Positions 2,740-51,602 of a stretch of DNA of 64,000 nt are shown here, piece after piece. The notes beneath the pieces are model-generated. The model made no database searches. It worked only from the letters and a program-made list of their open reading frames with translations, and had not been told where the DNA came from. Position numbers and translations under genes: made by a program. Origin of the DNA: a phage; the NCBI GenBank assembly GCA_026683435.1, contig GCA_026683435.1_4866.1. The stretch is one strand, 5' to 3'. Numbering within the stretch: position 1 is the first letter of the stretch; the number at the start of each line of letters is the position of its first letter.

Positions 2740-3249
2740 TCATGGATTATTAAGCGTACTGATAATCTCCTGTCGGAAATCGTTTGCCGCCTGCGACCCC
2801 ACTGGGCGAGAAGCTGCCTGGTGTTTCTTGGCAGGCGGGCTAGACGGATTTAACGGTGCCTGTGGTGTTACCGGCTTGAGTTCTTCAGGCGGAACCGCGG
2901 CCCCAGTGCCTGTCCCTGTTGGAGATTTGGTACCATCATATGGCGATCGAGAACCCAGGCATGTGAAGAGACGATCGTACAGCTTATTGTTCTCCACTTC
3001 GCCATGATCGGACTTCTCTTTTAGCTCCTTATAGGATATCTCCAGATACTGAGTACGCGATTGGACGCTAACCAGTGTGTGGTATTGAACAATGTAGGCA
3101 TATGAGACAAATGCAGAGAACGCGATCAGTGCCACTATCACTAGTGTCACTATTTTCCCGGCTCGTGTTACTTTCTCCCCCTCGCCCGGTTTAAATGCTT
3201 CCCACAGAATCTGTAAGAATGGAAGCAGTTTGAAAACTGATGCTATCAT
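2740..3249 (-). CDS. membrane-anchored protein with Pro-rich C-terminus (possible i-spanin)
   Basis: ORF track 2740..3255 begins at GTG; first ATG at 3247-3249. Hydrophobic helix IVTLVIVALIAFSAFVSYAYIV, charged helical segment, then Pro/Ser-rich tail; immediately followed by the lipoprotein gene. Confidence 0.4.
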   Translation of the reverse strand: MIASVFKLLPFLQILWEAFKPGEGEKVTRAGKIVTLVIVALIAFSAFVSYAYIVQYHTLVSVQSRTQYLEISYKELKEKSDHGEVENNKLYDRLFTCLGSRSPYDGTKSPTGTGTGAAVPPEELKPVTPQAPLNPSSPPAKKHQAASRPVGSQAANDFRQEIISTLNNP

Positions 3250-3273
3250 GCTCACCTCGGAGAGTTTTTAATT

Positions 3274-4653
3274 ATGTATGATTTACAAGGCTTTATTCAA
3301 ATAGCGGCTCTGATTGATAATGGCCCTGGCAACACCGCTCCGGTAGGTGAGTTGTCTGAGCTGTCATATTCGTTCGCTAAAAGCAAGCAGTATTTTACTA
3401 AAGAAAATCTGCAGGTGGAACTGGTTGCTTTTACTTCTAAACGTGACGAGTTGCCTATTAAGACCCCGGCCGTCTTTAGCGACCACGTTCTTACTGTTTC
3501 CCAATGGATCTACCAACAGTCTATCCTGGGCAACTTAAGAAACGACGAAGTTGAATTCCAGCGTTTGCTGTTGGGGCAATTTAATAGTGTCATCAGCGGT
3601 GTTCAGTCTGGCGCGATGATTCAGACTAACAGTAACTGGTTCCCACGTTGGGTCAGTTGGAAACTTGAAACCACAGCAGATAAAGTCGAAGACCCGTCTG
3701 ATGTAAATAACCAGATTATTCTCTGGTTTGCTGATGAAGATTTCAATCAGGACTATACTGGATTTGAAATTGAAGTCCAAATGCCGATATTACCGGTTGA
3801 TACTTTCTTGGCTGTGAAATCTGTAGTCGAAAAGGCAATGGAAGGGTTCAACCTTCCGGATCACCATAATAAGATTAACGAATTAGCTGACGGTTATCCG
3901 TACACTAGCCTGATTACTAACATCTATACTTGGCACGACCAGGAAGACTTTGACTCCACCTTACCGATACCGATGTCGGCTATCATCTACGGACGCGCGG
4001 GTCGTAACCCGAGCAGGATTAAACAAGCGTTACGTGATTACATTTTGGCAAACTCCAGTTTTACTGTGGCGTTGGGTGTCAAAGTGTTCCCAGAAATCTT
4101 TACGACCACCAAGTTCACAATTGTTCCCGGTTGGTCAATTCGTGGGATTCCAAATGAGGAAGATGTTGCGGCATTATACTCGCCGATTCTCCCATATGAT
4201 TTCTGGGTCAAAGCAATCTCCCGATTTGGGGAGTGGACTGTTCAAACCATTACGGAAAAAAATAGTGGAGCGATCTCGATTCCAACTACCGATGTAACGG
4301 ATTTACCGTCCATCTATAAATCGTTGAACGCCGTGGTTATCGCTGGCCCTGAAAACGATTCACGCAAAACGACCCTGCATGACACAATTCCTGACTACGC
4401 ATTAATCGGCACTAATAATGCGGATATTGCGAGAATGTCGAAGAAAACCACCGAGTGGTTGGATCTGTTCTTCCAGGCGTTAATTGCAGCCGAAGAGTAC
4501 CATCCGCACTCCACCCCGTTGGATATCGTGAAGCTCGTAGACGACGTTGATCCTAACGTTTACTTCTACGTCTTCGAATTCGATAACGTGGAATATCGTG
4601 TCTTGGCCCGTAAGGCCATTTGGGATGTTCCTGCGGTAGAGCCAAAAGCCTAA
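3274..4653 (+). CDS. hypothetical protein (459 aa)
   Basis: Long ORF with ATG start, 18 nt divergent from the neighbouring minus-strand gene; no motif recognised. Confidence 0.6.
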   Translation: MYDLQGFIQIAALIDNGPGNTAPVGELSELSYSFAKSKQYFTKENLQVELVAFTSKRDELPIKTPAVFSDHVLTVSQWIYQQSILGNLRNDEVEFQRLLLGQFNSVISGVQSGAMIQTNSNWFPRWVSWKLETTADKVEDPSDVNNQIILWFADEDFNQDYTGFEIEVQMPILPVDTFLAVKSVVEKAMEGFNLPDHHNKINELADGYPYTSLITNIYTWHDQEDFDSTLPIPMSAIIYGRAGRNPSRIKQALRDYILANSSFTVALGVKVFPEIFTTTKFTIVPGWSIRGIPNEEDVAALYSPILPYDFWVKAISRFGEWTVQTITEKNSGAISIPTTDVTDLPSIYKSLNAVVIAGPENDSRKTTLHDTIPDYALIGTNNADIARMSKKTTEWLDLFFQALIAAEEYHPHSTPLDIVKLVDDVDPNVYFYVFEFDNVEYRVLARKAIWDVPAVEPKA

Positions 4654-11639: not shown

Positions 11640-11831
11640 TCATGTCCGTTCTCCTATATCTCGCCACTCACAACGCGTGTCGAACAGACGTTCTTTAAGA
11701 GCAGCAGCTAAATAAACGACCGCAGCGATAACCACTACGGTTGCACAAAAGGAGAGGTACAGTACCATCACAACAAACTGAAGGAACTGAAAACCCCACC
11801 AAGCCCATAAGCGCCAACCGTTATGATGCAT
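11640..11831 (-). CDS. small membrane protein (63 aa)
   Basis: W-rich N-terminus then hydrophobic FVVMVLYLSFCATVVVIAAVVYLAAAL; its start overlaps the stop of the SbcC-like gene. Confidence 0.35.
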   Translation of the reverse strand: MHHNGWRLWAWWGFQFLQFVVMVLYLSFCATVVVIAAVVYLAAALKERLFDTRCEWRDIGERT

Positions 11832-14331
11832 ATTTGATTATTACCCCTTCGTTATAAACCGGTGGAAGCGTTACACCTTCTGGCTCCACGACACAGTAGG
11901 TGGCTTCGTTAAGTTTAGAATGAACTTCCGCTTCATGCGAAACGACCAGCAATTGAGAAAACTCTCCCGACAACGCCAACGATTTAATGAAGTTGACCAG
12001 TCGATTTTTGTGTTCTTCATCCATGCCTTCAGAGGGTTCATCCAATAACAAAGGATAGTTTTGTAAACCAAGCGCTTTATACGCTGTTAAACGAAACATC
12101 ATGTTAAAGATAATACGCTGTGCCTTCGAACCTTTCTTCACATCCGGCACCAGTTCTTCATGGTCTTTTAATCGCACCGGGAAAGTATAATCCAAATCCC
12201 CGTCGGTTAGATCGCATGGAATAACCTGCATCGGATATGCCCATACCGTTTCGATATACCGATTCATTAAATCCATGATGCGGGTAATCGCAGCATAAAA
12301 GTAACGACGCAATAATCCCTTTTCGGGTGAGACGGCATTGATAATCAATCTGGCATGATGGTGTTCTTTGAGCAACTCAGCTTGCTCTTTTTCCAATTCC
12401 GCTAAACGTGCAATAGCCCCTTCCATTTGACGAAACCGTTCACGAGCGGAAGTGTACGCATCGAGCTTCGCTTCGCGTCGGTTTAACAACTCGCGAACCA
12501 CGACGTTGTTAACGGAGATGTTCATTTCCGATACCAGATGTTCGTAGCCTTTTTGGAAACGTTCGATTGCTTCTTTGGTTTGTTGCAGTTGGGTGGTTTC
12601 GCGTTCCAGCACATTGGCTTGTCTGCGGTATTCTATCAGTCGACGGTTAGCCCCGTCCAGTTGTGAACGGATATGTTCAATTTTCTGGCTCAGCGCACCA
12701 TCAACGTTACCTACTGCGGCAACAGCCTCTTGCCATTCCCGTTCCGCTGTTGCAAGCTTCTCCGATTGACGCAGATACATCATGGCCGAATCTAGCTCTT
12801 CAGTAAAGGCACGTGCAATGGCACCGTAACGATCCCGCGCCATGGTGAAGATATCCAGCTCCTGCAGTTTACGGAAAAACAAACCGACAACGGGATGGTT
12901 GGAATACGACATGACGATTTCGCGAATCGTACGTAAGCTACGGACGTCCTCTTCAATCTCTTTGCGGTCACGCAAAAGACTATCCATTTCGTCTTTCAGC
13001 TGCTTCTTCCAACCTTCATTATCGTTGATGGCCTTTTCAATTTCAGGTAACGACTTACGAATCCCAGGACGGAAACGGTGGTTACACTGTGGACAATCAA
13101 CTTCTGCAGTTTCTAAGAAGTGTTGACGGTCGTGGTATAAACCGTGTAGCACATTCTCACAACGTTGCAGCTTTTCAGATAGACCCGCAGAGGTTAAATC
13201 CATACCCTGTAAACGCTTCTCTAACGCTCCCAGGCGCTCTGTTGTCTTTAACTGGTCCAGATGCATGGACAACGGTAAATTCCAGTTACAGGCATCGTTT
13301 AACGCGTTCTGAATGCTATCCACATCGATGCGGGTGCCTTCAAACAGAGCCGGGAACATCCAGTTCTGTTGGAACGTTGCCAGTTCCTGTTTTAAGCTGT
13401 CGATTGTTTGTTTTAGACCGGTATGGTTGCGCATCAGATATGCTTGACGCGACTCCTCATCCAGTAGCTGTGACAACTCTTTATTGTACATGTTGCATTC
13501 AGTTTCAGCAGAGGCCGCTTGCTCACGCCAGGCAACCACACGACTTTGAAACTCGTTAATCAGTTCGTCAGAAGGCAGAACGCCATAACGTTCCATAATG
13601 AGTTTTACAGCCGGTTGCAACGAGGCAATGCGTTTCCGGATACTATCAACCGAAACGGCGTTATCTAAACCGGGTCTCGCTTCAATGGTGCGGTTTAGTT
13701 CCTGAAGCTCAACGTCCAGTTCTTTCAAACGAACTTCTAAACGTGCACGATCTTCTTCATCGTCCACCACGCGCATTTTTGCCTCACCGATTTTACGGCC
13801 GGTGTGCTCAATGGCCCCACTTAAACTGGAAGCGAGTTTACGCAGACGACGATAACAACCAACGACGTACGTCAGATCAGATTCTGACATTAACGTAAAC
13901 CATTTACGACGAACTTCAGTGGTAGCGTCTGTTAATAAGGTTTCACCGTTAATTAACTCTTTGATTTCTTTGGTGATCCCGGTTAACTGTTCCACCATGG
14001 AGTTGTAAACTTTGGCGTTTACCGAGTCTACGACGGAGACACCTTTAGTGATGTTGAAGATACTACAAGACAGAGAAGAGCCACGACGCAGGACTTCAAA
14101 CTTAAGACGGTCGTCCCCAACTAACGCGTAGTTAGTGTAGGAACCACCTTCACGGAATTCTGATTTTGCTGGAGCTAAGGGGAGAAAAACAGATAGGAGG
14201 CTTGTTTTACCGCAGCCGTTGCCACCGAGGATGATGGTAACGGTTGACTTAAGGGTGAAATCAAACGTTTCGATTTCATGTAACCCCATGCCGGTAAATC
14301 CTTTCAAAATGATACGTTCGACCTTGAGCAT
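11821..14331 (-). CDS. SbcC/Rad50-like recombination ATPase
   Basis: N-terminal Walker A GGNGCGKTS; long central coiled-coil with CPQC zinc hook near its middle; C-terminal Walker B LLLDEPSEG and H-loop VVSHEA. Confidence 0.75.
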   Translation of the reverse strand: MLKVERIILKGFTGMGLHEIETFDFTLKSTVTIILGGNGCGKTSLLSVFLPLAPAKSEFREGGSYTNYALVGDDRLKFEVLRRGSSLSCSIFNITKGVSVVDSVNAKVYNSMVEQLTGITKEIKELINGETLLTDATTEVRRKWFTLMSESDLTYVVGCYRRLRKLASSLSGAIEHTGRKIGEAKMRVVDDEEDRARLEVRLKELDVELQELNRTIEARPGLDNAVSVDSIRKRIASLQPAVKLIMERYGVLPSDELINEFQSRVVAWREQAASAETECNMYNKELSQLLDEESRQAYLMRNHTGLKQTIDSLKQELATFQQNWMFPALFEGTRIDVDSIQNALNDACNWNLPLSMHLDQLKTTERLGALEKRLQGMDLTSAGLSEKLQRCENVLHGLYHDRQHFLETAEVDCPQCNHRFRPGIRKSLPEIEKAINDNEGWKKQLKDEMDSLLRDRKEIEEDVRSLRTIREIVMSYSNHPVVGLFFRKLQELDIFTMARDRYGAIARAFTEELDSAMMYLRQSEKLATAEREWQEAVAAVGNVDGALSQKIEHIRSQLDGANRRLIEYRRQANVLERETTQLQQTKEAIERFQKGYEHLVSEMNISVNNVVVRELLNRREAKLDAYTSARERFRQMEGAIARLAELEKEQAELLKEHHHARLIINAVSPEKGLLRRYFYAAITRIMDLMNRYIETVWAYPMQVIPCDLTDGDLDYTFPVRLKDHEELVPDVKKGSKAQRIIFNMMFRLTAYKALGLQNYPLLLDEPSEGMDEEHKNRLVNFIKSLALSGEFSQLLVVSHEAEVHSKLNEATYCVVEPEGVTLPPVYNEGVIIKYAS

Positions 14332-14427: not shown

Positions 14428-15054
14428 TTATTGCGGAATAAACTTACGGTGTCCGAGTGATTCCCAAAAACTATCGGTGCGCTCTTTGGTTAATTCATAC
14501 CACGCCCGCCCGGCATCAGAATCGACAACCTTTAACGTTTCAGTAAGCAGGAATTTGAACAGTTCGGCACTACGACCGGGTGCCACGCCGTCGAGATATA
14601 TCGGGATTAAATAACCGGTTTTGATTTCTTCGTACGCTTGCGATTGGTGCTGGCCAACAACCCAGGCATCAGCAGCGCTACCGACCAAAGTGGTGTTTAC
14701 AGTCAACTCATCAGAAATCCAGTTAACTGTATCAGCCATTATTGAATCGCCATTGACGTAGAAGAAAACCAAACGCTTAGGTTGCTCCACCGAACCAGCC
14801 AAATCTAATGCGGTGGTTCCGGTAAAGATCGTATTGTTAGGGTTACGTTCTGCAATAGGTAGAGCAAACCACGCTTCTAGCTGTTCCCAGCTACGCGGCA
14901 GTGCTTCTTTAAACCACTTCACCAATCGCGGGTATTCCAGAAACCCTTCTACCTCTTCTTCCATCAGATTGATACGCAGTTTGGTATCCCGACGATTCGC
15001 TTTCTGACACGTCACCATGTCGTCGATGAAACGAATCAGGGTAATCTCGTTCAT
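14428..15054 (-). CDS. hypothetical protein (208 aa)
   Basis: ORF flanked by terminators; no phosphoesterase (Mre11/SbcD) motifs seen. Confidence 0.5.
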   Translation of the reverse strand: MNEITLIRFIDDMVTCQKANRRDTKLRINLMEEEVEGFLEYPRLVKWFKEALPRSWEQLEAWFALPIAERNPNNTIFTGTTALDLAGSVEQPKRLVFFYVNGDSIMADTVNWISDELTVNTTLVGSAADAWVVGQHQSQAYEEIKTGYLIPIYLDGVAPGRSAELFKFLLTETLKVVDSDAGRAWYELTKERTDSFWESLGHRKFIPQ

Positions 15055-17553: not shown

Positions 17554-18141
17554 TTACAATGTGAACGTTGTGTTAAGAATACGAAAACCCAACGCACGCT
17601 TAGCGATTTGCATATTTGCAGGCGTAAAGTCCACCAGTTTGATTTGAACGATCGATAAATCGTAAAGCTTGTGAAGCACTTCGATTTTGTGTCGCCAATC
17701 TGTTTTTTGGTGCAGCTCTATCGTCGTTGGTATCTCGCCTAGTCTCGGCAACTGTGCTCCAAGTAAACGATGGTGGACTTTACCGTTTATAGTTGGAGTG
17801 CCTTCCGTGACCATCAGCCGCGCATCGATGTAGTTATTTCGCTTAGCGTATTCCATAAAAGTTTTGACGTTTATCTTTTCCTCGTATAGAATGCTGCGAA
17901 AGTATTCGTAAATGATGTGTCCCGCCACCTTACCACTTTCCGAGTCCGGAATAACCTTATCGATGAAAATCGCAGAGACCACTTCGCTCCCACGCGAATG
18001 CATTGTAATGACCCTATCCCCGTGCTGTGCGGCAGTTAATAATCCACTCACATCAAGCCCCACCGGAAACAAGCCACGACTACGCATTACGTGCAGGTCT
18101 TCTAACTTGTTCTCTTGCAGTCGTAAAATACGTTCTGTCAT
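17554..18141 (-). CDS. hypothetical protein (~195 aa)
   Basis: ORF track 17554..18150 starts at GTG; ATG at 18139-18141 with SD GAGGTG 7 nt upstream. Confidence 0.5.
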   Translation of the reverse strand: MTERILRLQENKLEDLHVMRSRGLFPVGLDVSGLLTAAQHGDRVITMHSRGSEVVSAIFIDKVIPDSESGKVAGHIIYEYFRSILYEEKINVKTFMEYAKRNNYIDARLMVTEGTPTINGKVHHRLLGAQLPRLGEIPTTIELHQKTDWRHKIEVLHKLYDLSIVQIKLVDFTPANMQIAKRALGFRILNTTFTL

Positions 18142-18170
18142 ATACCACACCTCAAATTAATTTGAGTTAA

Positions 18171-19320: not shown

Positions 19321-19902
19321 TTACGCAACGTAAACCGCGCGATGGTTGCGGAAGCCGTGTTCTTCGGTAAGGTGGCGGGCGTAGGTGTGTTCAATAGACG
19401 GAGTATAACAAAGCAGATGCAGTTCCTGCCCTTCAGCTAGGCCAGGCAACATCACACTCAACCAGTCCATTCCACCGTTCTGTTGAAGCATGTCTTGAGT
19501 TAGCGTTAACGGTTGAACGATATGTTCCGGATTGCAATCGTCTTCACTTTTTGTAAAACGAAGAATTCCCGGACGAGAACCCTCCACCAGTACCGTGCGC
19601 GGTAAGTCAAACGCGACCACTTTCGCTTTCTGTTCGTAGGACGATTTATAACGACGTAACAGTCCAATATCGGTATCTAGTACGGTAGCCATCACGTTAT
19701 ACAGCATCACTAGACGGTCGTCGTTATCGGTGGTGACGTGTTTTACGAACACCAACATCGGAATACCTTCGCGTTGGAATACCACGAAGTCTGCTTCTTT
19801 GTATTTCTCGCAACCTTCTACTACCCGTGGGGCTTTCACGCGATAGCGGCGGGTCAGTTCTTCGTAGTTCATTTCATGTTGTTCAATAATTGGTTGTGGC
19901 AT
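19321..19902 (-). CDS. hypothetical protein (193 aa)
   Basis: ORF; SD AAAGAG upstream. Confidence 0.5.
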   Translation of the reverse strand: MPQPIIEQHEMNYEELTRRYRVKAPRVVEGCEKYKEADFVVFQREGIPMLVFVKHVTTDNDDRLVMLYNVMATVLDTDIGLLRRYKSSYEQKAKVVAFDLPRTVLVEGSRPGILRFTKSEDDCNPEHIVQPLTLTQDMLQQNGGMDWLSVMLPGLAEGQELHLLCYTPSIEHTYARHLTEEHGFRNHRAVYVA

Positions 19903-21322: not shown

Positions 21323-21640
21323 TTAGTATACGACCAGTACGATGCAGTCATCGATAGCCAGATTCAGTAATGAGTAGTCGTTACTTAACCGCTGGTAACG
21401 CATCCCTTTTTCAAACTGACTTAATTGTTCAGTCGGCATGACGTATACCGCGCTTTGCACTACTCCCGTAAACAGTTCGTCGTAGAACTGGTCTACTTCC
21501 CCGACTTTGTAAAAGCGCATTCTTTGATTGTTAGCAAAGACGCTGTCTAGCTTCCCGTTACTGGCTTTCTGTAACGCAGTAAAGGCACTGTCTGCATCAT
21601 TACGCTCTAATGCACTTTTAATGGTTTGAAATAAAGACAT
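21323..21640 (-). CDS. hypothetical protein (105 aa)
   Basis: ORF with SD GAGGAG 9 nt upstream. Confidence 0.5.
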   Translation of the reverse strand: MSLFQTIKSALERNDADSAFTALQKASNGKLDSVFANNQRMRFYKVGEVDQFYDELFTGVVQSAVYVMPTEQLSQFEKGMRYQRLSNDYSLLNLAIDDCIVLVVY

Positions 21641-21824
21641 GGTACTGCACTCCTCGTTAGGTTAGAAGTCAAGGTCAACTACAAAACAAAAGGATGTCGG
21701 TATCCTACGGATACCTCCGTTTATGTTCGCATCCAATACATAAACCCCCTTACCCCCGTACTCTCCTCGATTGTCAAACGATGAGATCGAAACGTAAAAA
21801 AGTGTAGTATGAGAGGAGGGTGGT

Positions 21825-22757
21825 ATGAATAAATCTAAGTCAGGGTTGCACATCTTCTCGATAGGTATCGTCGCGGAAGATAAACCTCGTGGTGCCACTC
21901 GAGTTAAAGTCATCCCTATCGAAGTTAACTTTATTAATCCTACAGCTGTCGATGCAACAGAGACACCTGTAGAGAAGCAACACAACAGTTTAAGTGGTAC
22001 TGACAACCTTACTGTAAAGCAAGGTAATGCCATCACTGCAAAATGGATGAAGTCCAACAGCAACCGGGTTAACCCTCCGGATGTGAAAAAAGAAGACTAT
22101 GTAAGAATCTGGCGTATCGGTGAAACCGATATGTACTTCTGGGAAGATTTAAACAACAGTAACGTTAAGCGACTGGAAGATGGGGTATATGCCTGGTCTG
22201 CTGACCCAGTAAACCAGATGGCCGATGACCTCTCTAACGCCTACGTACTGAATGTCTCCCCGATGGATGGTCACGTTACTTTACGCACCAGTATGACTAA
22301 CGGTGAGAAAAATGCGTATTTGCTCCAGCTGAATACCCGTGACGGGTTTTGCCAGTTAGTGGATGACGAAGGGCGTAAGTTCTACCTCAACTCTCCAGAG
22401 GATGACTTAGGGTTTGAAAACGCCTGCCGGTCGAAGATTAATATCAATAAAGAGGACGCTTTCATTTATGCTAAACGTTCTATTAATCTCGAGACAAAGA
22501 CGATTAACGAGAAGTGCGAAACTCGCAACTCTACAGCGTCGAAAAACATGGCATGGACGACTGAAGACTGGAAGACCACATGCCCAACGAATCTATTTAC
22601 CGGTAACCTGGAAGTAGGTAAGGATTTCCTCTATAATGGCAAGGGTGAAGGTAAGGGTACATTCACAGTTACCGAATCGGTTATCGGCGGCATCACCTTT
22701 AGTCTTCACTTGCATACTGGCCATGGTCCGGGCAACGACACCAGTACACCGCACTAA
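21825..22757 (+). CDS. hypothetical protein (310 aa), His/Gly-rich C-terminal tip
   Basis: SD GAGGAGGG upstream; C-terminus ...FSLHLHTGHGPGNDTSTPH. Confidence 0.55.
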   Translation: MNKSKSGLHIFSIGIVAEDKPRGATRVKVIPIEVNFINPTAVDATETPVEKQHNSLSGTDNLTVKQGNAITAKWMKSNSNRVNPPDVKKEDYVRIWRIGETDMYFWEDLNNSNVKRLEDGVYAWSADPVNQMADDLSNAYVLNVSPMDGHVTLRTSMTNGEKNAYLLQLNTRDGFCQLVDDEGRKFYLNSPEDDLGFENACRSKININKEDAFIYAKRSINLETKTINEKCETRNSTASKNMAWTTEDWKTTCPTNLFTGNLEVGKDFLYNGKGEGKGTFTVTESVIGGITFSLHLHTGHGPGNDTSTPH

Positions 22758-22918
22758 TTTAATTACGTGTGAGCTGTATATTGTGACAATAAACCTCCTA
22801 ACTGTAACGATAACCCAAATCGCTTGTACACGGTTAGCCACTTTTTTCGCACAAAAGCCGGTTTATTGTCAACTAATTTACGAGACGGGGCAGTTAATAT
22901 GCCTCGAAGTACAAGTAG

Positions 22919-22946
22919 TTGAACATAGGGTTCTTCTGCTATCATT
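22919..22946 (+). promoter_or_regulatory. candidate sigma70-like promoter for the BhsA-like gene
   Basis: TTGAAC (22919-22924), 15-16 nt spacer, TATCAT/ATCATT (22940-22946), about 20 nt upstream of ATG 22966. Confidence 0.25.
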
Positions 22947-22965
22947 TGTTAATGGAGATAAGTAA

Positions 22966-23175
22966 ATGAGCATTCGTGAAATCACCGCAGGCAGCGACGT
23001 TTCTGGTCTGGTAGAAGCAGGCACTGTTCAGGTTTCTGGACTGAGCACCGTTACCGAAGTTACCGAAGCGCTGGCTAAGAAAGCCGAAGCTGAAGGCGGC
23101 GTAGCATTTAAAGTTACCGCTTGTGGCGGCAACAACAAAATGTTCGGCAACGCCATCTATTACGTAAACGCGTAA
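22966..23175 (+). CDS. DUF1471 (BhsA/YdgH-like) domain protein without signal peptide
   Basis: AGTVQVSGLSTVTEVTEALAKKAEAEGGVAFKVTACGGNNKMFGNAIYYVNA parallels the enterobacterial BhsA C-terminal domain (VGTISA..LEEQLAQKADEMGAKSFRITS...GTAVIYK); an in-frame stop sits directly before the ATG, so no signal peptide; SD GGAGAT. Confidence 0.55.
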   Translation: MSIREITAGSDVSGLVEAGTVQVSGLSTVTEVTEALAKKAEAEGGVAFKVTACGGNNKMFGNAIYYVNA

Positions 23176-23189
23176 TCGGCCTGCAGGCA

Positions 23190-23249
23190 AAAAAAAGATA
23201 TAGGTACCCTACTCCCAACGGGAGTAGGGTTTACCTTTTATTTTTTTCG
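23190..23249. terminator. bidirectional rho-independent terminator
   Basis: A-tract, stem ACCCTACTCCC / GGGAGTAGGGT with loop AAC, then TTACCTTTTATTTTTTT; overlaps the stop of minus gene 23238..24500. Confidence 0.7.
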
Positions 23250-24500
23250 TGCTTTGTAGCGATGCATTTCAACAAATGGCTTACCCCAAGCCCCGAAAGG
23301 CCCGACGATCGCCTGCGCGTCGTTTACCAAATTCTGGTTATACCAACGCGCGTTCCCCAACAAAAAGTTTTCCCGGTCGAAGAATGTGGTATTAAAGACC
23401 CACTCCCCTTCTTCCCAGGTCGGCCAGTACCCTACACATTTACCAATACGGTTAAAGATAGGACCTAGCGTCTTCTTCCCATCTGGGTCAGTCGGGTCTT
23501 TTAAATAGAACCGGCCCCAGATAGCGTTGTGGCTTATTCCGTGAATCTCTTTTTCGAGATACGGGTTGTCTATCGTAAAGATAAACGAGGATTCGTGCGT
23601 CAGCAACGCTTTTAACGTTTCTGAGTTACGAATACGTTGAACGGACGTAGGCGTACTTAAATCACCTACACCGATGGCGTCCCAATCGTAATAGCGACGG
23701 GTTTCCAATACAATCTTCGCCACGCTAAGGTTTGGCAGACTCAGCATAATCGCACGGTCGCTGAAATAGCCCTGCGGTGGCAACCAATGCAGAATACCCC
23801 CGATGACGAACCCAACGGTTTTCCCTGTAATGGAATCGGGTAAGGTCAACATTAACGAAGAATAGTAATCTCGCGTAGTATCGAGTTTGTTCATCGTTAA
23901 ACCGGATATGGGGTAAGTCTTCACTTTACCAATATTCGCCATCACTAGACAGCCGATGTCGGGTGTGTTGGCTCTCCGCACGATGTTACCAGCGCCGGTT
24001 AAGCGAACACCCACTGGGTCAGATTGGTGCGGTACCCATTGACCGTTGATGTTGTACAGTACCCCGGTACGGTATTTCTCTTTCCACTCATCGTCGCAGA
24101 CTACAACAACGTCGTGTGCATCATCAGGATTGAAGTCCTGAGTGTAGTGGTACCCAGGAGGGCACAGGTGCGTTTCTACGGGCACATCTGCATTAATAGA
24201 CTGGTAATGTGCCTCAACGAATTCGAGCTTCGGTAGGCCCTTCCCAAGCGTTGGAATCGCGATTCCTGACTTGGTGTTTAACCAATCTTGCAACGTGTCC
24301 GTACGGTTTTGTAAATCAGCCAGGTGATACTGGCTATAGAAGGTATATTCGGCACCTAGTGCTTCTAGTCCTACTTCGAAAAAGTGGTAGTTAGCACAAA
24401 GGGTATTTAAGGGCTGCGTGACATCGATGGTTCCCCAAGTTCGGGTGTCTCGAGAGAAGCCAAAAGCGCTGTCGGCCCGCACTTGATAAGCAGTAGTCAC
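23238..24500 (-). CDS. hypothetical protein (420 aa)
   Basis: Long ORF divergent from the fibre genes. Confidence 0.55.
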   Translation of the reverse strand: MTTAYQVRADSAFGFSRDTRTWGTIDVTQPLNTLCANYHFFEVGLEALGAEYTFYSQYHLADLQNRTDTLQDWLNTKSGIAIPTLGKGLPKLEFVEAHYQSINADVPVETHLCPPGYHYTQDFNPDDAHDVVVVCDDEWKEKYRTGVLYNINGQWVPHQSDPVGVRLTGAGNIVRRANTPDIGCLVMANIGKVKTYPISGLTMNKLDTTRDYYSSLMLTLPDSITGKTVGFVIGGILHWLPPQGYFSDRAIMLSLPNLSVAKIVLETRRYYDWDAIGVGDLSTPTSVQRIRNSETLKALLTHESSFIFTIDNPYLEKEIHGISHNAIWGRFYLKDPTDPDGKKTLGPIFNRIGKCVGYWPTWEEGEWVFNTTFFDRENFLLGNARWYNQNLVNDAQAIVGPFGAWGKPFVEMHRYKARKK

Positions 24501-24567
24501 TGGCTGTTTCCTCTAAGGATTCGGGTCATAGTATGAACTCGACGCCCTCAGAGAAAAGGAGTGTAAA

Positions 24568-27500
24568 ATGGCTGTCGTCCCTGACCCGCACTATCAAGAA
24601 CCGGGGAATATGCAGACCGGTGAAGCGGTAACGCCGATCGGTACTAAGTACCGGATGCTGTTCCCCGCACACGCCCCCTTTTATACCACATCCCTGGTGG
24701 TCAAGAGTGGCGGCAAGAAATTAACATTAGGTGATGATTACGTCATCACCCATGCGTACGTTACGGGCATGGCCCGCACTGGTCATGTTTGTCACGGCGG
24801 CGTGTGGATTACCAACCCGAAATACCAGAGTGGCTTTACACTCGATTACCATGCAATTGGTATCGGCGAAGCCACTGCAGAAATGATCGCCGCAGAACGA
24901 GAAGCGAATAAAGATCGGTATCCCGTAGACTGCCAATGGGATAACGTCATTGGGGATTTATATTTCCCACCGGTCGATATTAAGTTCGACTGGGAAAACT
25001 GGCGTGGCGAATCCGAGTTGATGGAAGCCATTGTTGCGGTTGGTGCTAAGCTCGGTGAAGCGATCAGCCGCGTTGACCCGATTGCTCGTAACACGTTAGA
25101 CCTTCAATATCGCGCCGGCGTCACGCTTATCACATCCGAGCAGTATGCGACGTACGACGGTACTGGCGGCTACACGTATAACGCGTCACGTCGTCGTTAT
25201 TCGTTATCTTACCAGAATACGACATTCGATGCGTATTCGTTAGCGGTAAAATACCGTTTACCGAGCATTCCACCGGAAACAACGTTGAATCCAGGCGAGT
25301 TGATCGATTGGATGCTCTGTTACGCAAACGGTGGGGCAAGTATCCTGCGTCTTCAGTTGAAGCAACGCGCGATTTATCTTACCTTAACGACAGCGATTGG
25401 TTCCGGTTCGTCTAATTACAGCTATACGTTGACGACTGGCCTGACCGATACCGAGTTGGCGGGTGAGGTTGAGTTTAGCGTGGTCAGACGCGAAGGTAAC
25501 GGCATTTACGACATCACCGTTAAAACAAGCAAGCAAACCGTTAACTACAGCTTTAACGTTGACAACCCACCGAGCGAATTTGCGCCAGGGTATCAGAAAA
25601 CTAATGTCGCAAAATGGTTGAAGTTTAAATCGGGCGTCAACCTAAACTGGTGGGCAGGTGAGAACGATTACGTCCAGATTCGTTCATTACCAGGCGCACC
25701 GGCACCTGACGTTAACAATGACGTGTACCAGCTGCTGGTAAAATATCACCAGATTGTCGATAAACTGTACCGTGATGCACCGGCACACACACACGTGCCG
25801 CGCAAGGATAACCCGCATCGCGATTCGTGGGGCGCAATCCGTGCTTTGGAGAATAACGGTATTGCTTCGGACGCGACACTGGTATACGGAAAAACGCAAC
25901 CGCAGCTGACAGATTACGTTAACAATCTGTTGCCGAAACTGTCAACGCTGGCGAATAAGCTTTTACGCTTACCGACGGCTGCACAGTCTATCAACGGCAC
26001 GTTCGGCATGAAGCCTGGCCTGACTTCAATAACGTCAGCAGTGGGTACCGATGAGTCTGAAGGCGTGGGTGCACAATTCACGGTTGACCCGAGGGTTATC
26101 CGTTTTATTGGACGCGATTCGCAAACCGTTAACGCCGGGAACAATCCGATTACATGGCAAGGTGGGGCTAACCAGCTCATCCTTTATCCGGATTCCCGTG
26201 GATTGGAGTTCAACGGTAAGAAACTGTTGGACCCTACTACGGTCGGGCCGTACCTGCCGGGTAACGAATCAGGTGGTGATGGACTGTTTTACGGAGCATC
26301 CACAGCTACTGTAACCATTAACGGTAACGGTATTCAGTCGGTTCCGTTCATTTGTACTTTTGTTCCACCGGAGTCCGACGACCTTGGCCTGATGGCTGTC
26401 CGTTTGTTGGCTACTGAATTCGGTGATCGTGAGGACTTGGCCGCAACGCCGGCACTCATCAAGAAATTGGATCAGCAGTTTACGGGCAAGTTGGTTGCCG
26501 TTAAATCGTACATCAACGACATGCCACTGACGAGTTCTATTTACATCGATAAAACTAACTTCGGCTTATCGAACGTACAGAACATCCCAGATGTACAATT
26601 GCCGATTTCCCCGCTCCAACAAGCTGAGCTGGACAAGTATGCAGTCGTCGGTCACAAACACACTTCTGCCGCGTTCGGGATTAAGCGTGCAACAACGACG
26701 GAGTTCGGTTTAGTACAGTTCGGCACCGCGGTTGACGATGCCACGCTGGCATTAGACGGCGGTGAGGTCATCCGACAGGCGGACGCCATCACAGAGATAG
26801 TGAAGGTTGCGAAGACAGTCGACTCTGGTGCTTCAATCAACATTATTCGTTACGGTTTACCCGGCACGGATATCATTGAAAACGGCATCACTTACACCGA
26901 CTGGATGGTTACTATTAAAGCGAACGATTATTTCGTTGGTCGCGAGTACAAAGTACCTCTCTCCACATTTAACTTGGCGGAGCTATTCCCAGCGACGCAC
27001 GAAGATGCCGAGTTTGGCGTGTATGTTGACGCGGCGGGCGATGATGGCAAGTACATTATCTACGAAAATCCAAATACGGCAGAAACTGAGACGATGACTA
27101 AAATAGGTTCCATCGTCACCAGTGAAACCGGTGTGGTGTTTGTAGAAATCCGCAACGTGACGCGTTTAGGTGAGTTTCGTGAATTAGGCGAGCATATCGA
27201 GGATGATAACGCCCATATTCGTCGGGGCATGACGCAAGCTGAATTCGGATTTACTTACGGTACCGGCGGGCCTGTGTGGTCCACGGGTGCACCGGGTACA
27301 AAACGTATAGATGCCGATTGGCGTTACGCGCAGGCTAGCAGCTATACGCCTATGTTGAAAGCGGACTACGATCCGGCTGCTGATAAATGGACGTTTAAAA
27401 CAACCGGTTTAACTGTAGCCGATTATCGTTTTGTCCACAACACATTCCCAATGTTCCAGAATAACGGCATTACCGCGACGTGGACACCTTTAACCGCAAC

Positions 27501-51498: not shown

Positions 51499-51591
51499 TT
51501 AACTCCAGCTGATTCGACCTGCGTGTTGGGGATTATCCCGCTGAATGAGCCGACACAACAGCTCAAGTGCAGTGGATGAGTAAAACCCCAT
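51499..51591 (-). pseudogene. 30-codon relic of an N-module gene
   Basis: MGFYSSTALELLCRLIQRDNPQHAGRISWS followed by a stop, own SD GGAGC; matches residues 1-30 of 53991..55409 (MGLYTEPSMELLCQQIVRDNPGLAGKITADS). Confidence 0.5.
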
Positions 51592-51602
51592 ATTAGCTCC
51601 TG

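Follow-up and report, generated by a model that had tools for sequence, protein, structure and literature searches.

Few envelope proteins of enterobacteria are induced by stress as strongly as the DUF1471 proteins, which have no known biochemical activity. The family (PF07338) includes BhsA/YcfR, McbA/YbiM, YbiJ, YhcN, YahO, SrfN and YdgH. It has been reported to be restricted to the Enterobacteriaceae, with most of its members carrying signal sequences, and its structures have been described as most similar to that of RcsF (PMC4092069), the outer-membrane lipoprotein that acts as the sensor of the Rcs envelope-stress relay. Here we describe a stand-alone DUF1471 gene that is found in a 64,000-nucleotide stretch of phage DNA (contig GCA_026683435.1_4866.1 of NCBI GenBank assembly GCA_026683435.1), which is referred to in its entirety as the window. 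The product of this gene, gp172, is a DUF1471 domain that has no export signal, and its open reading frame (ORF) is exchanged by itself between phage genera. No paper discussing DUF1471 or BhsA genes in phages was found in the literature, and the signal-less state, the conserved slot and cassette, the purifying selection and the unique swapping of two alleles all appear to be unreported.

The gene sits in a cassette, the parts of which are listed below with positions counted from the first base of the window.

22877-22901, plus strand: candidate promoter for a phage RNA polymerase, made up of TTTACG (22877-22882), 15 nucleotides of any sequence and TATG (22898-22901), the last of these lying within TAATATG (22895-22901)
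22901-22965, plus strand: predicted 65-nucleotide leader, with a Shine-Dalgarno sequence, GGAG, at 22954-22957 and an in-frame TAA at 22963-22965
22966-23175, plus strand: gene of the gp172 type, encoding a signal-less DUF1471 domain of 69 amino acids and 7 kDa
23189-23247, bidirectional: intrinsic terminator common to gp172 and the convergent gene gp171, made up of a run of eight A residues, a stem and a T-rich run

The window belongs to a Salmonella jumbo phage of the SPN3US group. Over the 700 bases around the gene, identity is 97-99% to jumbo phages of the genus Seoulvirus, whose genomes are of about 240 kb: Proteus phage 7, Salmonella phage 1252 and SPN3US. The encoded protein is 100% identical to SPN3US_0172 (YP_009153466), the gp172 of that phage. 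It is entered as a hypothetical protein in GenBank and as a 'DUF1471 domain-containing protein' in RefSeq, and hence the domain call is already public. On the opposite strand, the entire DUF1471 gene is spanned by a longer ORF of 82 codons with a TTG start (22942-23190), and naive longest-ORF gene calling consequently selects the wrong strand at this position.

An earlier note, drawn from the sequence alone, had taken the 69-residue product for a stand-alone protein of the BhsA/DUF1471 group, and with respect to the domain this is borne out. gp172 matches PF07338 (YdgH_BhsA-like) with 43.5 bits (E-value 3.3e-11), which is above the gathering score of 27, and its residues 16-66 align with profile positions 2-54 of 55 (53 of the 55 positions). 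Its phage homologues score 49-68 bits. The protein also matches phrog_8068 (E 3e-33), and it keeps the most conserved motifs of the DUF1471 family, VSxSG ... GGNNK ... G.A..Y. The name BhsA does not hold up, as the scores against the NCBIfam equivalogs are 19-41 bits and thus far under the cut-offs of 90-125. With the BhsA equivalog itself (NF047859, cut-off 90), gp172 scores 39.4 bits and its homologues 45-60 bits, and gp172 likewise falls far below the cut-offs for McbA, YbiJ, YhcN and YahO. The label 'multiple stress resistance protein BhsA', under which the homologues of SPAsTU, Kwan and Wellington are annotated, is over-specific at 45-60 bits. A nearest bacterial subfamily and a recent capture were both considered and rejected: across 46-61 residues, the top matches from bacteria reach 44-56% identity, which is no closer than other phage alleles. 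Neither the NCBIfam scores nor these matches allow gp172 to be assigned to a named DUF1471 subfamily.

The AlphaFold2 model of gp172, made with eight homologues, has a predicted local distance difference test score of 89.9 and the order beta-alpha-beta-beta, with strands at residues 15-26, 47-54 and 59-68 and a helix at 29-42. Compared by Foldseek, the predicted structure gives template-modelling (TM) scores of 0.73 to YdgH-III (4evu), 0.75 to SrfN (2ma8), 0.78 to YdgH-I (2m2j) and 0.72-0.73 to YahO (2noc/2ma4), with probabilities of 0.99-1.00 for all of these solved DUF1471 structures, and 0.79 to RcsF (2y1b). By sequence and by predicted fold, gp172 is a complete DUF1471 domain of the YdgH/BhsA/McbA-like, RcsF-like kind.

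The N-terminus of gp172 carries nothing that resembles an export signal. The TAA at 22963-22965 is in frame with the ORF and abuts its ATG, and the highest 10-residue Kyte-Doolittle mean within the first 30 residues is 1.24; among the phage proteins this value is at most 1.3. A profile of the phage proteins, searched exhaustively against 1.84 billion representative proteins, gave 73 hits. Those of the phage type have 68-78 amino acids, and their alignments begin close to residue 1. Full-length hits from bacteria, with 75-95 amino acids, have the domain at the C-terminus, behind an N-terminus that is mostly signal-like, with hydrophobicity mostly of about 1.7-3.1, K-rich n-regions and AxA-type cleavage sites. 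A few short or signal-less bacterial hits resemble fragments or mis-called starts. gp172 starts at about the point where the mature bacterial DUF1471 proteins start after removal of their signal peptides. The missing signal peptide and the in-frame stop ahead of the ATG, both remarked upon in the earlier note, are therefore as described.

It is highly improbable that gp172 is exported after all, whether through a missed upstream start, through read-through of the stop codon or by means of a non-classical signal. A 109-codon ORF (22636-22965) does lie in the same frame, with the TAA next to the ATG as its stop codon, but it begins inside the upstream gene gp173 and ahead of the predicted transcription start. 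Across 13 phage loci from IMG/VR, the in-frame upstream extension is 23 codons at most and contains nothing signal-like, and no hydrophobic N-terminus was seen in any phage homologue read. gp172 has no lipobox or twin-arginine motif, and its published mass is 7 kDa. The search for an alternative start that could provide a signal peptide thus found none that is credible.

The genes on either side of the cassette, which provide its context and lie outside the unit, both belong to the tail.

21825-22757, plus strand: gp173, a baseplate assembly or puncture (central spike-like) protein, upstream (phrog_3216, E 2e-122)
23238-24500, minus strand: gp171, an essential tail/baseplate protein, convergent and downstream (phrog_3337)

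In SPN3US proteomics gp173 is assigned 'Tail' (PMC10052503), and gp171 is essential, tail-associated and a homologue of phiKZ ORF130 (PMC5105663). All SPN3US-like phages that were examined have a signal-less DUF1471 ORF of 68-73 amino acids in this slot between the two genes. The order of spike gene, DUF1471 gene and convergent gp171 extends across Seoulvirus, Erskinevirus (phiEaH2), Machinavirus, Wellingtonvirus and Derbicusvirus (including Cronobacter phage CR5), and each of the 13 IMG/VR loci that have the gene is on a contig of 220-250 kb. In Goslar and in the Vibrio phage pVa-21, the spike gene and gp171 are likewise convergent, with no DUF1471 gene between them. The hosts of the jumbo phages that carry it are only Salmonella, Escherichia, Proteus, Erwinia and Cronobacter. 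This distribution, together with the reported restriction of DUF1471 to the Enterobacteriaceae, fits one host capture at the base of the clade, and one capture rather than several is favoured by the shared slot, the shared loss of the signal peptide and the similar N-termini. The earlier note had suggested acquisition from the host and repurposing; of this, it is the origin that is rendered plausible by the enterobacterial restriction of the family, by the confinement of the gene to enterobacterial jumbo phages and by its lack in Goslar and pVa-21.

Two apparent exceptions to this distribution were rejected. Presence among the relatives seemed patchy when a first tblastn search missed the divergent genes of what is described below as allele class B, and direct inspection found all of them. 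Split tblastn hits in the SPFM phages, which would have implied a disrupted and hence dispensable gene, come from GenBank records whose 60-nucleotide lines are in reversed order. In LR535911.1 (Salmonella phage SPFM12), positions 1265-1971, and also in SPFM5, 6, 7, 9, 10, 14 and 15, the 60-nucleotide blocks are reversed in order with each in its original orientation, as though the lines had been turned around with no complementing, and gp172 and its neighbours are thereby scrambled into chimeric 'proteins'; this is an artefact of the deposit and no mutation.

In Wellingtonvirus, a second copy lies directly downstream of the first. This protein, Kwan gp190, has 186 amino acids, an N-terminal DUF1471 domain (29.7 bits), no signal peptide and a C-terminus that consists of a long acidic, low-complexity (disordered) tail. 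The slot in this genus (3070-4302 of the Kwan record) holds three small genes, namely those for a basic 52-residue protein (gp192), the DUF1471 protein gp191 and gp190, and the junction appears to behave here as a hot spot for insertion and duplication.

Between genera, the ratio of nonsynonymous to synonymous substitution (dN/dS) is 0.12-0.42, with dS reaching up to saturation, and gp172 is thus under purifying selection. Less credible still than export is the view that the gene has no function, being either a relic in decay or an ORF that arose by chance, with the antisense ORF at 22942-23190 as the alternative gene. It is the antisense ORF that a naive longest-ORF caller chooses, but the Pfam match, the homologues in five genera, a dN/dS well below 1, the published peptides and a length that is held at 68-73 amino acids throughout all argue against this view. 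Both a hidden signal peptide and a non-functional ORF are effectively excluded.

The phage homologues fall into deeply separated alleles. Class A is made up of the window/SPN3US, pEa_SNUABM_29 and Caitlin proteins, with 74-84% mutual identity, and class B of those from SPAsTU, phiEaH2 and Machina, with 83-88%; identity between the classes is 41-49%, and Derbicusvirus and Wellingtonvirus have further allele types. The flanking genes follow phage taxonomy and contradict the A/B split. Thus, gp171 of the window is 85% identical to that of SPAsTU, which belongs to the same genus, and 65% identical to that of Caitlin, while Caitlin and Machina are 72-80% identical in gp171 and gp173 and 46% identical in the DUF1471 gene. 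As a control, about 40 genes of the window, over 50 kb, were compared with those of SPAsTU, Caitlin and Machina. The DUF1471 gene is alone among them in being nearer to Caitlin than to SPAsTU, by +35 points where the others range from -6 to -40, and alone in showing a strong difference between Caitlin and Machina (+29; the others -15 to +8). Sliding nucleotide identity places the boundaries of the exchange at approximately the ends of the ORF, with the promoter and leader tracking the phage lineage. By these comparisons, it is the ORF by itself that phage genera have swapped, in the form of two alleles of deep divergence. Such exchange of the ORF only would mark a host- or competitor-facing accessory gene and not a fixed structural part. 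A partner gene was also sought, and none of the genes in this 50 kb, those for the baseplate and fibres included, co-varies with the allele class.

The promoter and terminator of the cassette are likewise conserved. The earlier note had read TTGAAC (22919-22924) and TATCAT (22940-22945) as promoter-like, and a promoter of the sigma-70 type has to be given up here. The spacer between the two hexamers is 15 nucleotides; a scan of 21500-24800 (3.3 kb) for sigma-70 promoters found no site; the hexamers are not conserved, being ATAGAC and TTTCAT in the closest Erwinia relative, pEa_SNUABM_29; and they fall downstream of a conserved start motif of the phage type. Phages of the phiKZ type transcribe with their own polymerases, the late promoter being TATG, in which the G is position +1; in phiKZ this motif is necessary and not sufficient, and the middle motif is AAanTTACc near -24 (PMC4666361). 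In the window, G22901 is the predicted transcription start of gp172. A TTTAC element is found about 22 nucleotides before its TATG. The arrangement TTTAC[AG]-N14-15-TATG recurs upstream of the homologues in pEa_SNUABM_29, Caitlin, Kwan, SPAsTU, phiEaH2 and Machina, and TAGTATG is found upstream of the homologue in the Derbicusvirus pair, with a phage-type motif in nine of nine relatives. This conserved upstream element is a candidate phage-polymerase promoter of the phiKZ type.

A wider motif, TARTATG, occurs at six sites in the window. All six are intergenic, although intergenic DNA makes up 6.4% of the window, and all six point toward the next gene, which is 20-71 nucleotides away. In shuffled sequence 13.6 sites are expected, so that the motif is avoided in coding DNA.

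21805-21811, 22895-22901, 24529-24535, 45051-45057 (minus strand), 45086-45092 and 51589-51595 (minus strand): TARTATG sites from the motif scan

These sites precede gp173, gp172 and gp170, among others, and TARTATG, which is related to the late TATG of phiKZ, is a candidate promoter motif for the phage's own RNA polymerase. A 123-nucleotide divergent intergenic region (45021-45145) has two of the sites back to back, 45051-45057 on the minus strand and 45086-45092 on the plus strand, and resembles a divergent promoter pair.

Between the candidate promoter and the ORF, the leader shows no significant folding (z = -0.19), and a known RNA element in the 208-nucleotide upstream spacer or the leader was discounted, as there is no Rfam match in 22700-23300 and no significant fold. 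The Shine-Dalgarno sequence GGAG lies 8 nucleotides ahead of the ATG. At the other end of the gene, the terminator has an 11-bp G+C-rich core stem (23206-23230) that can be extended to 23203-23235, with arms at 23203-23216 and 23220-23235, and that is flanked by the A run at 23189-23196 and the T-rich run at 23236-23247. The folding energy is -31.1 kcal/mol on the plus strand and -29.4 kcal/mol on the minus strand (z = -5.5 and -5.0), with none of 200 shuffles as stable. The good Shine-Dalgarno sequence and strong bidirectional terminator that had been noted earlier are thus confirmed. Comparable hairpins with A and T runs are found downstream of the homologue in all nine of the related phages checked; in Kwan, the equivalent hairpin is placed after the second DUF1471 gene, gp190. 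In the Erwinia phages pEa_SNUABM_29, Caitlin, Kwan, phiEaH2 and Machina, a terminator hairpin also precedes the promoter, and the homologue there would therefore be a monocistronic unit. Unlike these homologues, gp172 has no evident terminator upstream of its promoter in the window.

Many intergenic regions of the window have a common layout, in which a G+C-rich hairpin and a T-run ending in TTTTTTAC(G/A) are followed by the upstream region of the next gene.

Upstream of 1443-2162, 11821-14331, 14428-15054, 17554-18150 and 19321-19902, all minus strand: hairpin/T-run layout

This hairpin/TTTTTTAC layout suggests that there may be modules in which terminator and promoter are fused; the TTTAC element ahead of the gp172 TATG is a further occurrence of the element.

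Where the protein is found has been addressed by published proteomics of SPN3US. Ali et al. 2017 detected gp172 in virions purified by a caesium chloride (CsCl) step, with four unique peptides, six spectra and 81% coverage; it was described as the smallest virion protein, it was absent from a gp47 mutant, and further work was called for (PMC5694885). In these wild-type virions, its mass-adjusted count is 0.86, compared to 0.93 for the portal protein (PMC5694885). The spectra counted for gp172 across preparations of different purity are as follows (PMC7411985 Table S2).

Wild type, CsCl step only: 6
am59-supD, CsCl step only: 3
am59-supF tailed virions, CsCl step and buoyant gradient: 0
am59-supF DNA-full heads, CsCl step and buoyant gradient: 2
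am59-sup0-D, differential centrifugation only: 13, the highest count
am59-sup0-SB, lower band of the CsCl step: 0
am59sup0-a, am59sup0-b and am66sup0, double gradient, proheads plus tails: 0, 0 and 0

These counts bear on the proposal that gp172 is a minor tail or baseplate protein, held for example on the gp173 central spike, which would be assembled in the cytoplasm and carried into the periplasm by the tail at infection. The proposal draws on the position of the gene between a spike-like baseplate gene and the essential gp171 in every relative, on the peptides, coverage and near-portal count of the CsCl-step virions, and on the fact that the protein is not flagged as a head protein and bears the label 'Tail' in PMC7411985; a TATG-type promoter also stands before gp173 and gp170. 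Nevertheless, we consider it unlikely, since gp172 gave no spectra in tailed virions from the double gradient and none in the three tail-rich samples, in which gp171 (23-39 spectra) and gp173 (3-27) were well detected (PMC7411985). It gave two spectra in tailless heads, and its top count came from the crudest sample. The deeper triplicate data set of 2023 lists gp171 and gp173 as tail and has no row for gp172, though non-virion proteins with 2-3 spectra are listed (PMC10052503). The allele class, moreover, does not co-vary with gp173, gp171 or gp168-170. gp172 is encoded within a structural module, and at the level of the motif it has TARTATG in common with gp173 and gp170; the published tables do not find it reproducibly in highly purified virions or together with tails. 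gp172 is probably an abundant soluble accessory protein that contaminates the less pure preparations and not a part of the baseplate, and the database label 'Tail' would be corrected accordingly, like the label 'BhsA'. The 2020 protease paper remarks on its 'Unusually high abundance in cell' (PMC7411985), with which synthesis in the cytoplasm, as put forward in the earlier note's description of a cytoplasmic copy, is consistent.

A coherent account of the gene can be assembled from these observations. A host DUF1471 gene probably entered an ancestor of the SPN3US-like phages of Enterobacterales and then lost its signal peptide. The resulting cassette, which would consist of a TATG-type phage-polymerase promoter, a 65-nucleotide leader, GGAG, the ORF and a terminator common with the convergent baseplate gene, would have been kept since then under purifying selection. 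gp172 would be made and folded in the cytoplasm and would accumulate highly in infected cells without being a stoichiometric part of the virion. As a soluble accessory factor, it may retain the envelope-directed binding of the bacterial proteins and reach its target independently of Sec, either after the inner membrane is breached at lysis, by the route of signal-less endolysins, or on release with the progeny. We put the probability of this last reading, in which envelope-directed binding is retained and access is independent of Sec, whether from lysis onwards or through loose attachment to particles, at roughly 40%; it is favoured because the most conserved DUF1471 motifs are kept.

Several points weigh against this reading. 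The 81% coverage in CsCl-step virions and the label 'Tail' given by the SPN3US authors (PMC7411985) stand on the other side, as does the location of the gene within a baseplate module, where a weak structural association is possible, and a 7-kDa protein is easily lost from gels, which weakens the negative proteomics. The gene lies about 15 kb from that for the endolysin, and the lysis route to the envelope is purely conjectural. As bacterial DUF1471 proteins have no known activity, retained binding of an envelope ligand cannot be checked against one. The candidate promoter, too, mixes TATG with a TTAC element near -22, and may be of either the middle or the late class.

Abundant late non-virion proteins that are encoded in tail modules are typically chaperones. 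This raises the prospect that gp172 acts in the cytoplasm with a new partner, either as a chaperone for baseplate or fibre assembly or as a binder or inhibitor of a factor from the host or a rival phage, with the fold alone being reused. The absence of an export signal and the high abundance in the cell would suit such a role, as would the location in a baseplate/fibre module with a phage promoter, the allele swapping, which is typical of conflict genes, and the Wellingtonvirus gene duplication with its added acidic disordered tail. We nonetheless regard it as rather unlikely: no gene in the 50 kb compared co-varies with the allele class, the retained DUF1471 motifs argue for the ancestral activity, and no DUF1471 protein is known as a chaperone or as a cytoplasmic actor.

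Retention of envelope-directed binding can be taken further, to a scheme in which the domain of a host periplasmic stress protein has been turned into a Sec-independent phage effector of the envelope, set free at lysis or borne loosely on particles. Balancing or diversifying selection would maintain its two ancient alleles, which would move among the genera of jumbo phages as a cassette of one ORF. We think this scheme improbable as a whole. If true, it would represent a new interface of conflict, for instance with the envelope-stress or capsule response or between competing phages, and it would offer a first handle on the ligands of DUF1471 domains. More generally, gp172 stands out in jumbo phages as a candidate gene for host interaction, within a baseplate module that is conservative in other respects. 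The phage version, being the mature domain only, highly expressed, fixed in the clade and uniquely allele-swapped, amounts to a natural experiment, in which the role of the fold could be learned from a partner or ligand. Unless a phenotype comes to light, little of practical consequence is at stake.

Two further observations concern the neighbouring gp173. A short segment of its gene (22517-22583) is hypervariable and indel-rich, with 22-51% nucleotide identity even to other Seoulvirus phages. The C-terminus of the protein (22700-22757) forms a His-rich tip, HLHTGHGPGNDTSTPH; SHGPH is also the ending of the gp173 homologue in the Vibrio phage pVa-21, and it is reminiscent of the metal-binding apex found in central spike proteins.

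Among described systems, the bacterial DUF1471 proteins are the closest to gp172, sharing with it the domain, the predicted fold, the motifs and the tie to Enterobacterales, and gp172 has the size of a mature member of that family. It differs from them in having no signal peptide, in being encoded by a virulent jumbo phage with a candidate phage-polymerase promoter, and in having no orthologue in a named subfamily. RcsF has the same overall alpha+beta fold as the model of gp172 (TM 0.79 to 2y1b), whereas identity is about 11% and gp172 lacks the lipobox, the disordered N-terminal linker and the disulphide cysteines of RcsF; where gp172 has its single Cys, other phages have Ala, Ile or Tyr. It is thus in fold only that gp172 resembles RcsF. 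In its genomic organization, gp172 may be likened to the morons, being a single small ORF with a candidate promoter and a terminator, of probable host origin and exchanged between phages, and its cassette is placed at a junction of convergent transcription inside a structural module. Morons, however, are found sporadically in temperate phages, with promoters of the host type that act in lysogens, whereas gp172 is carried by a virulent phage, is fixed across its whole clade and has a candidate phage-polymerase promoter. Finally, the canonical signal-less endolysins, which reach the periplasm through holin lesions, are envelope-directed proteins that accumulate in the cytoplasm without a signal peptide, and they provide the model for the route proposed for gp172; in contrast to these, gp172 has no enzymatic domain and no linkage to lysis genes.

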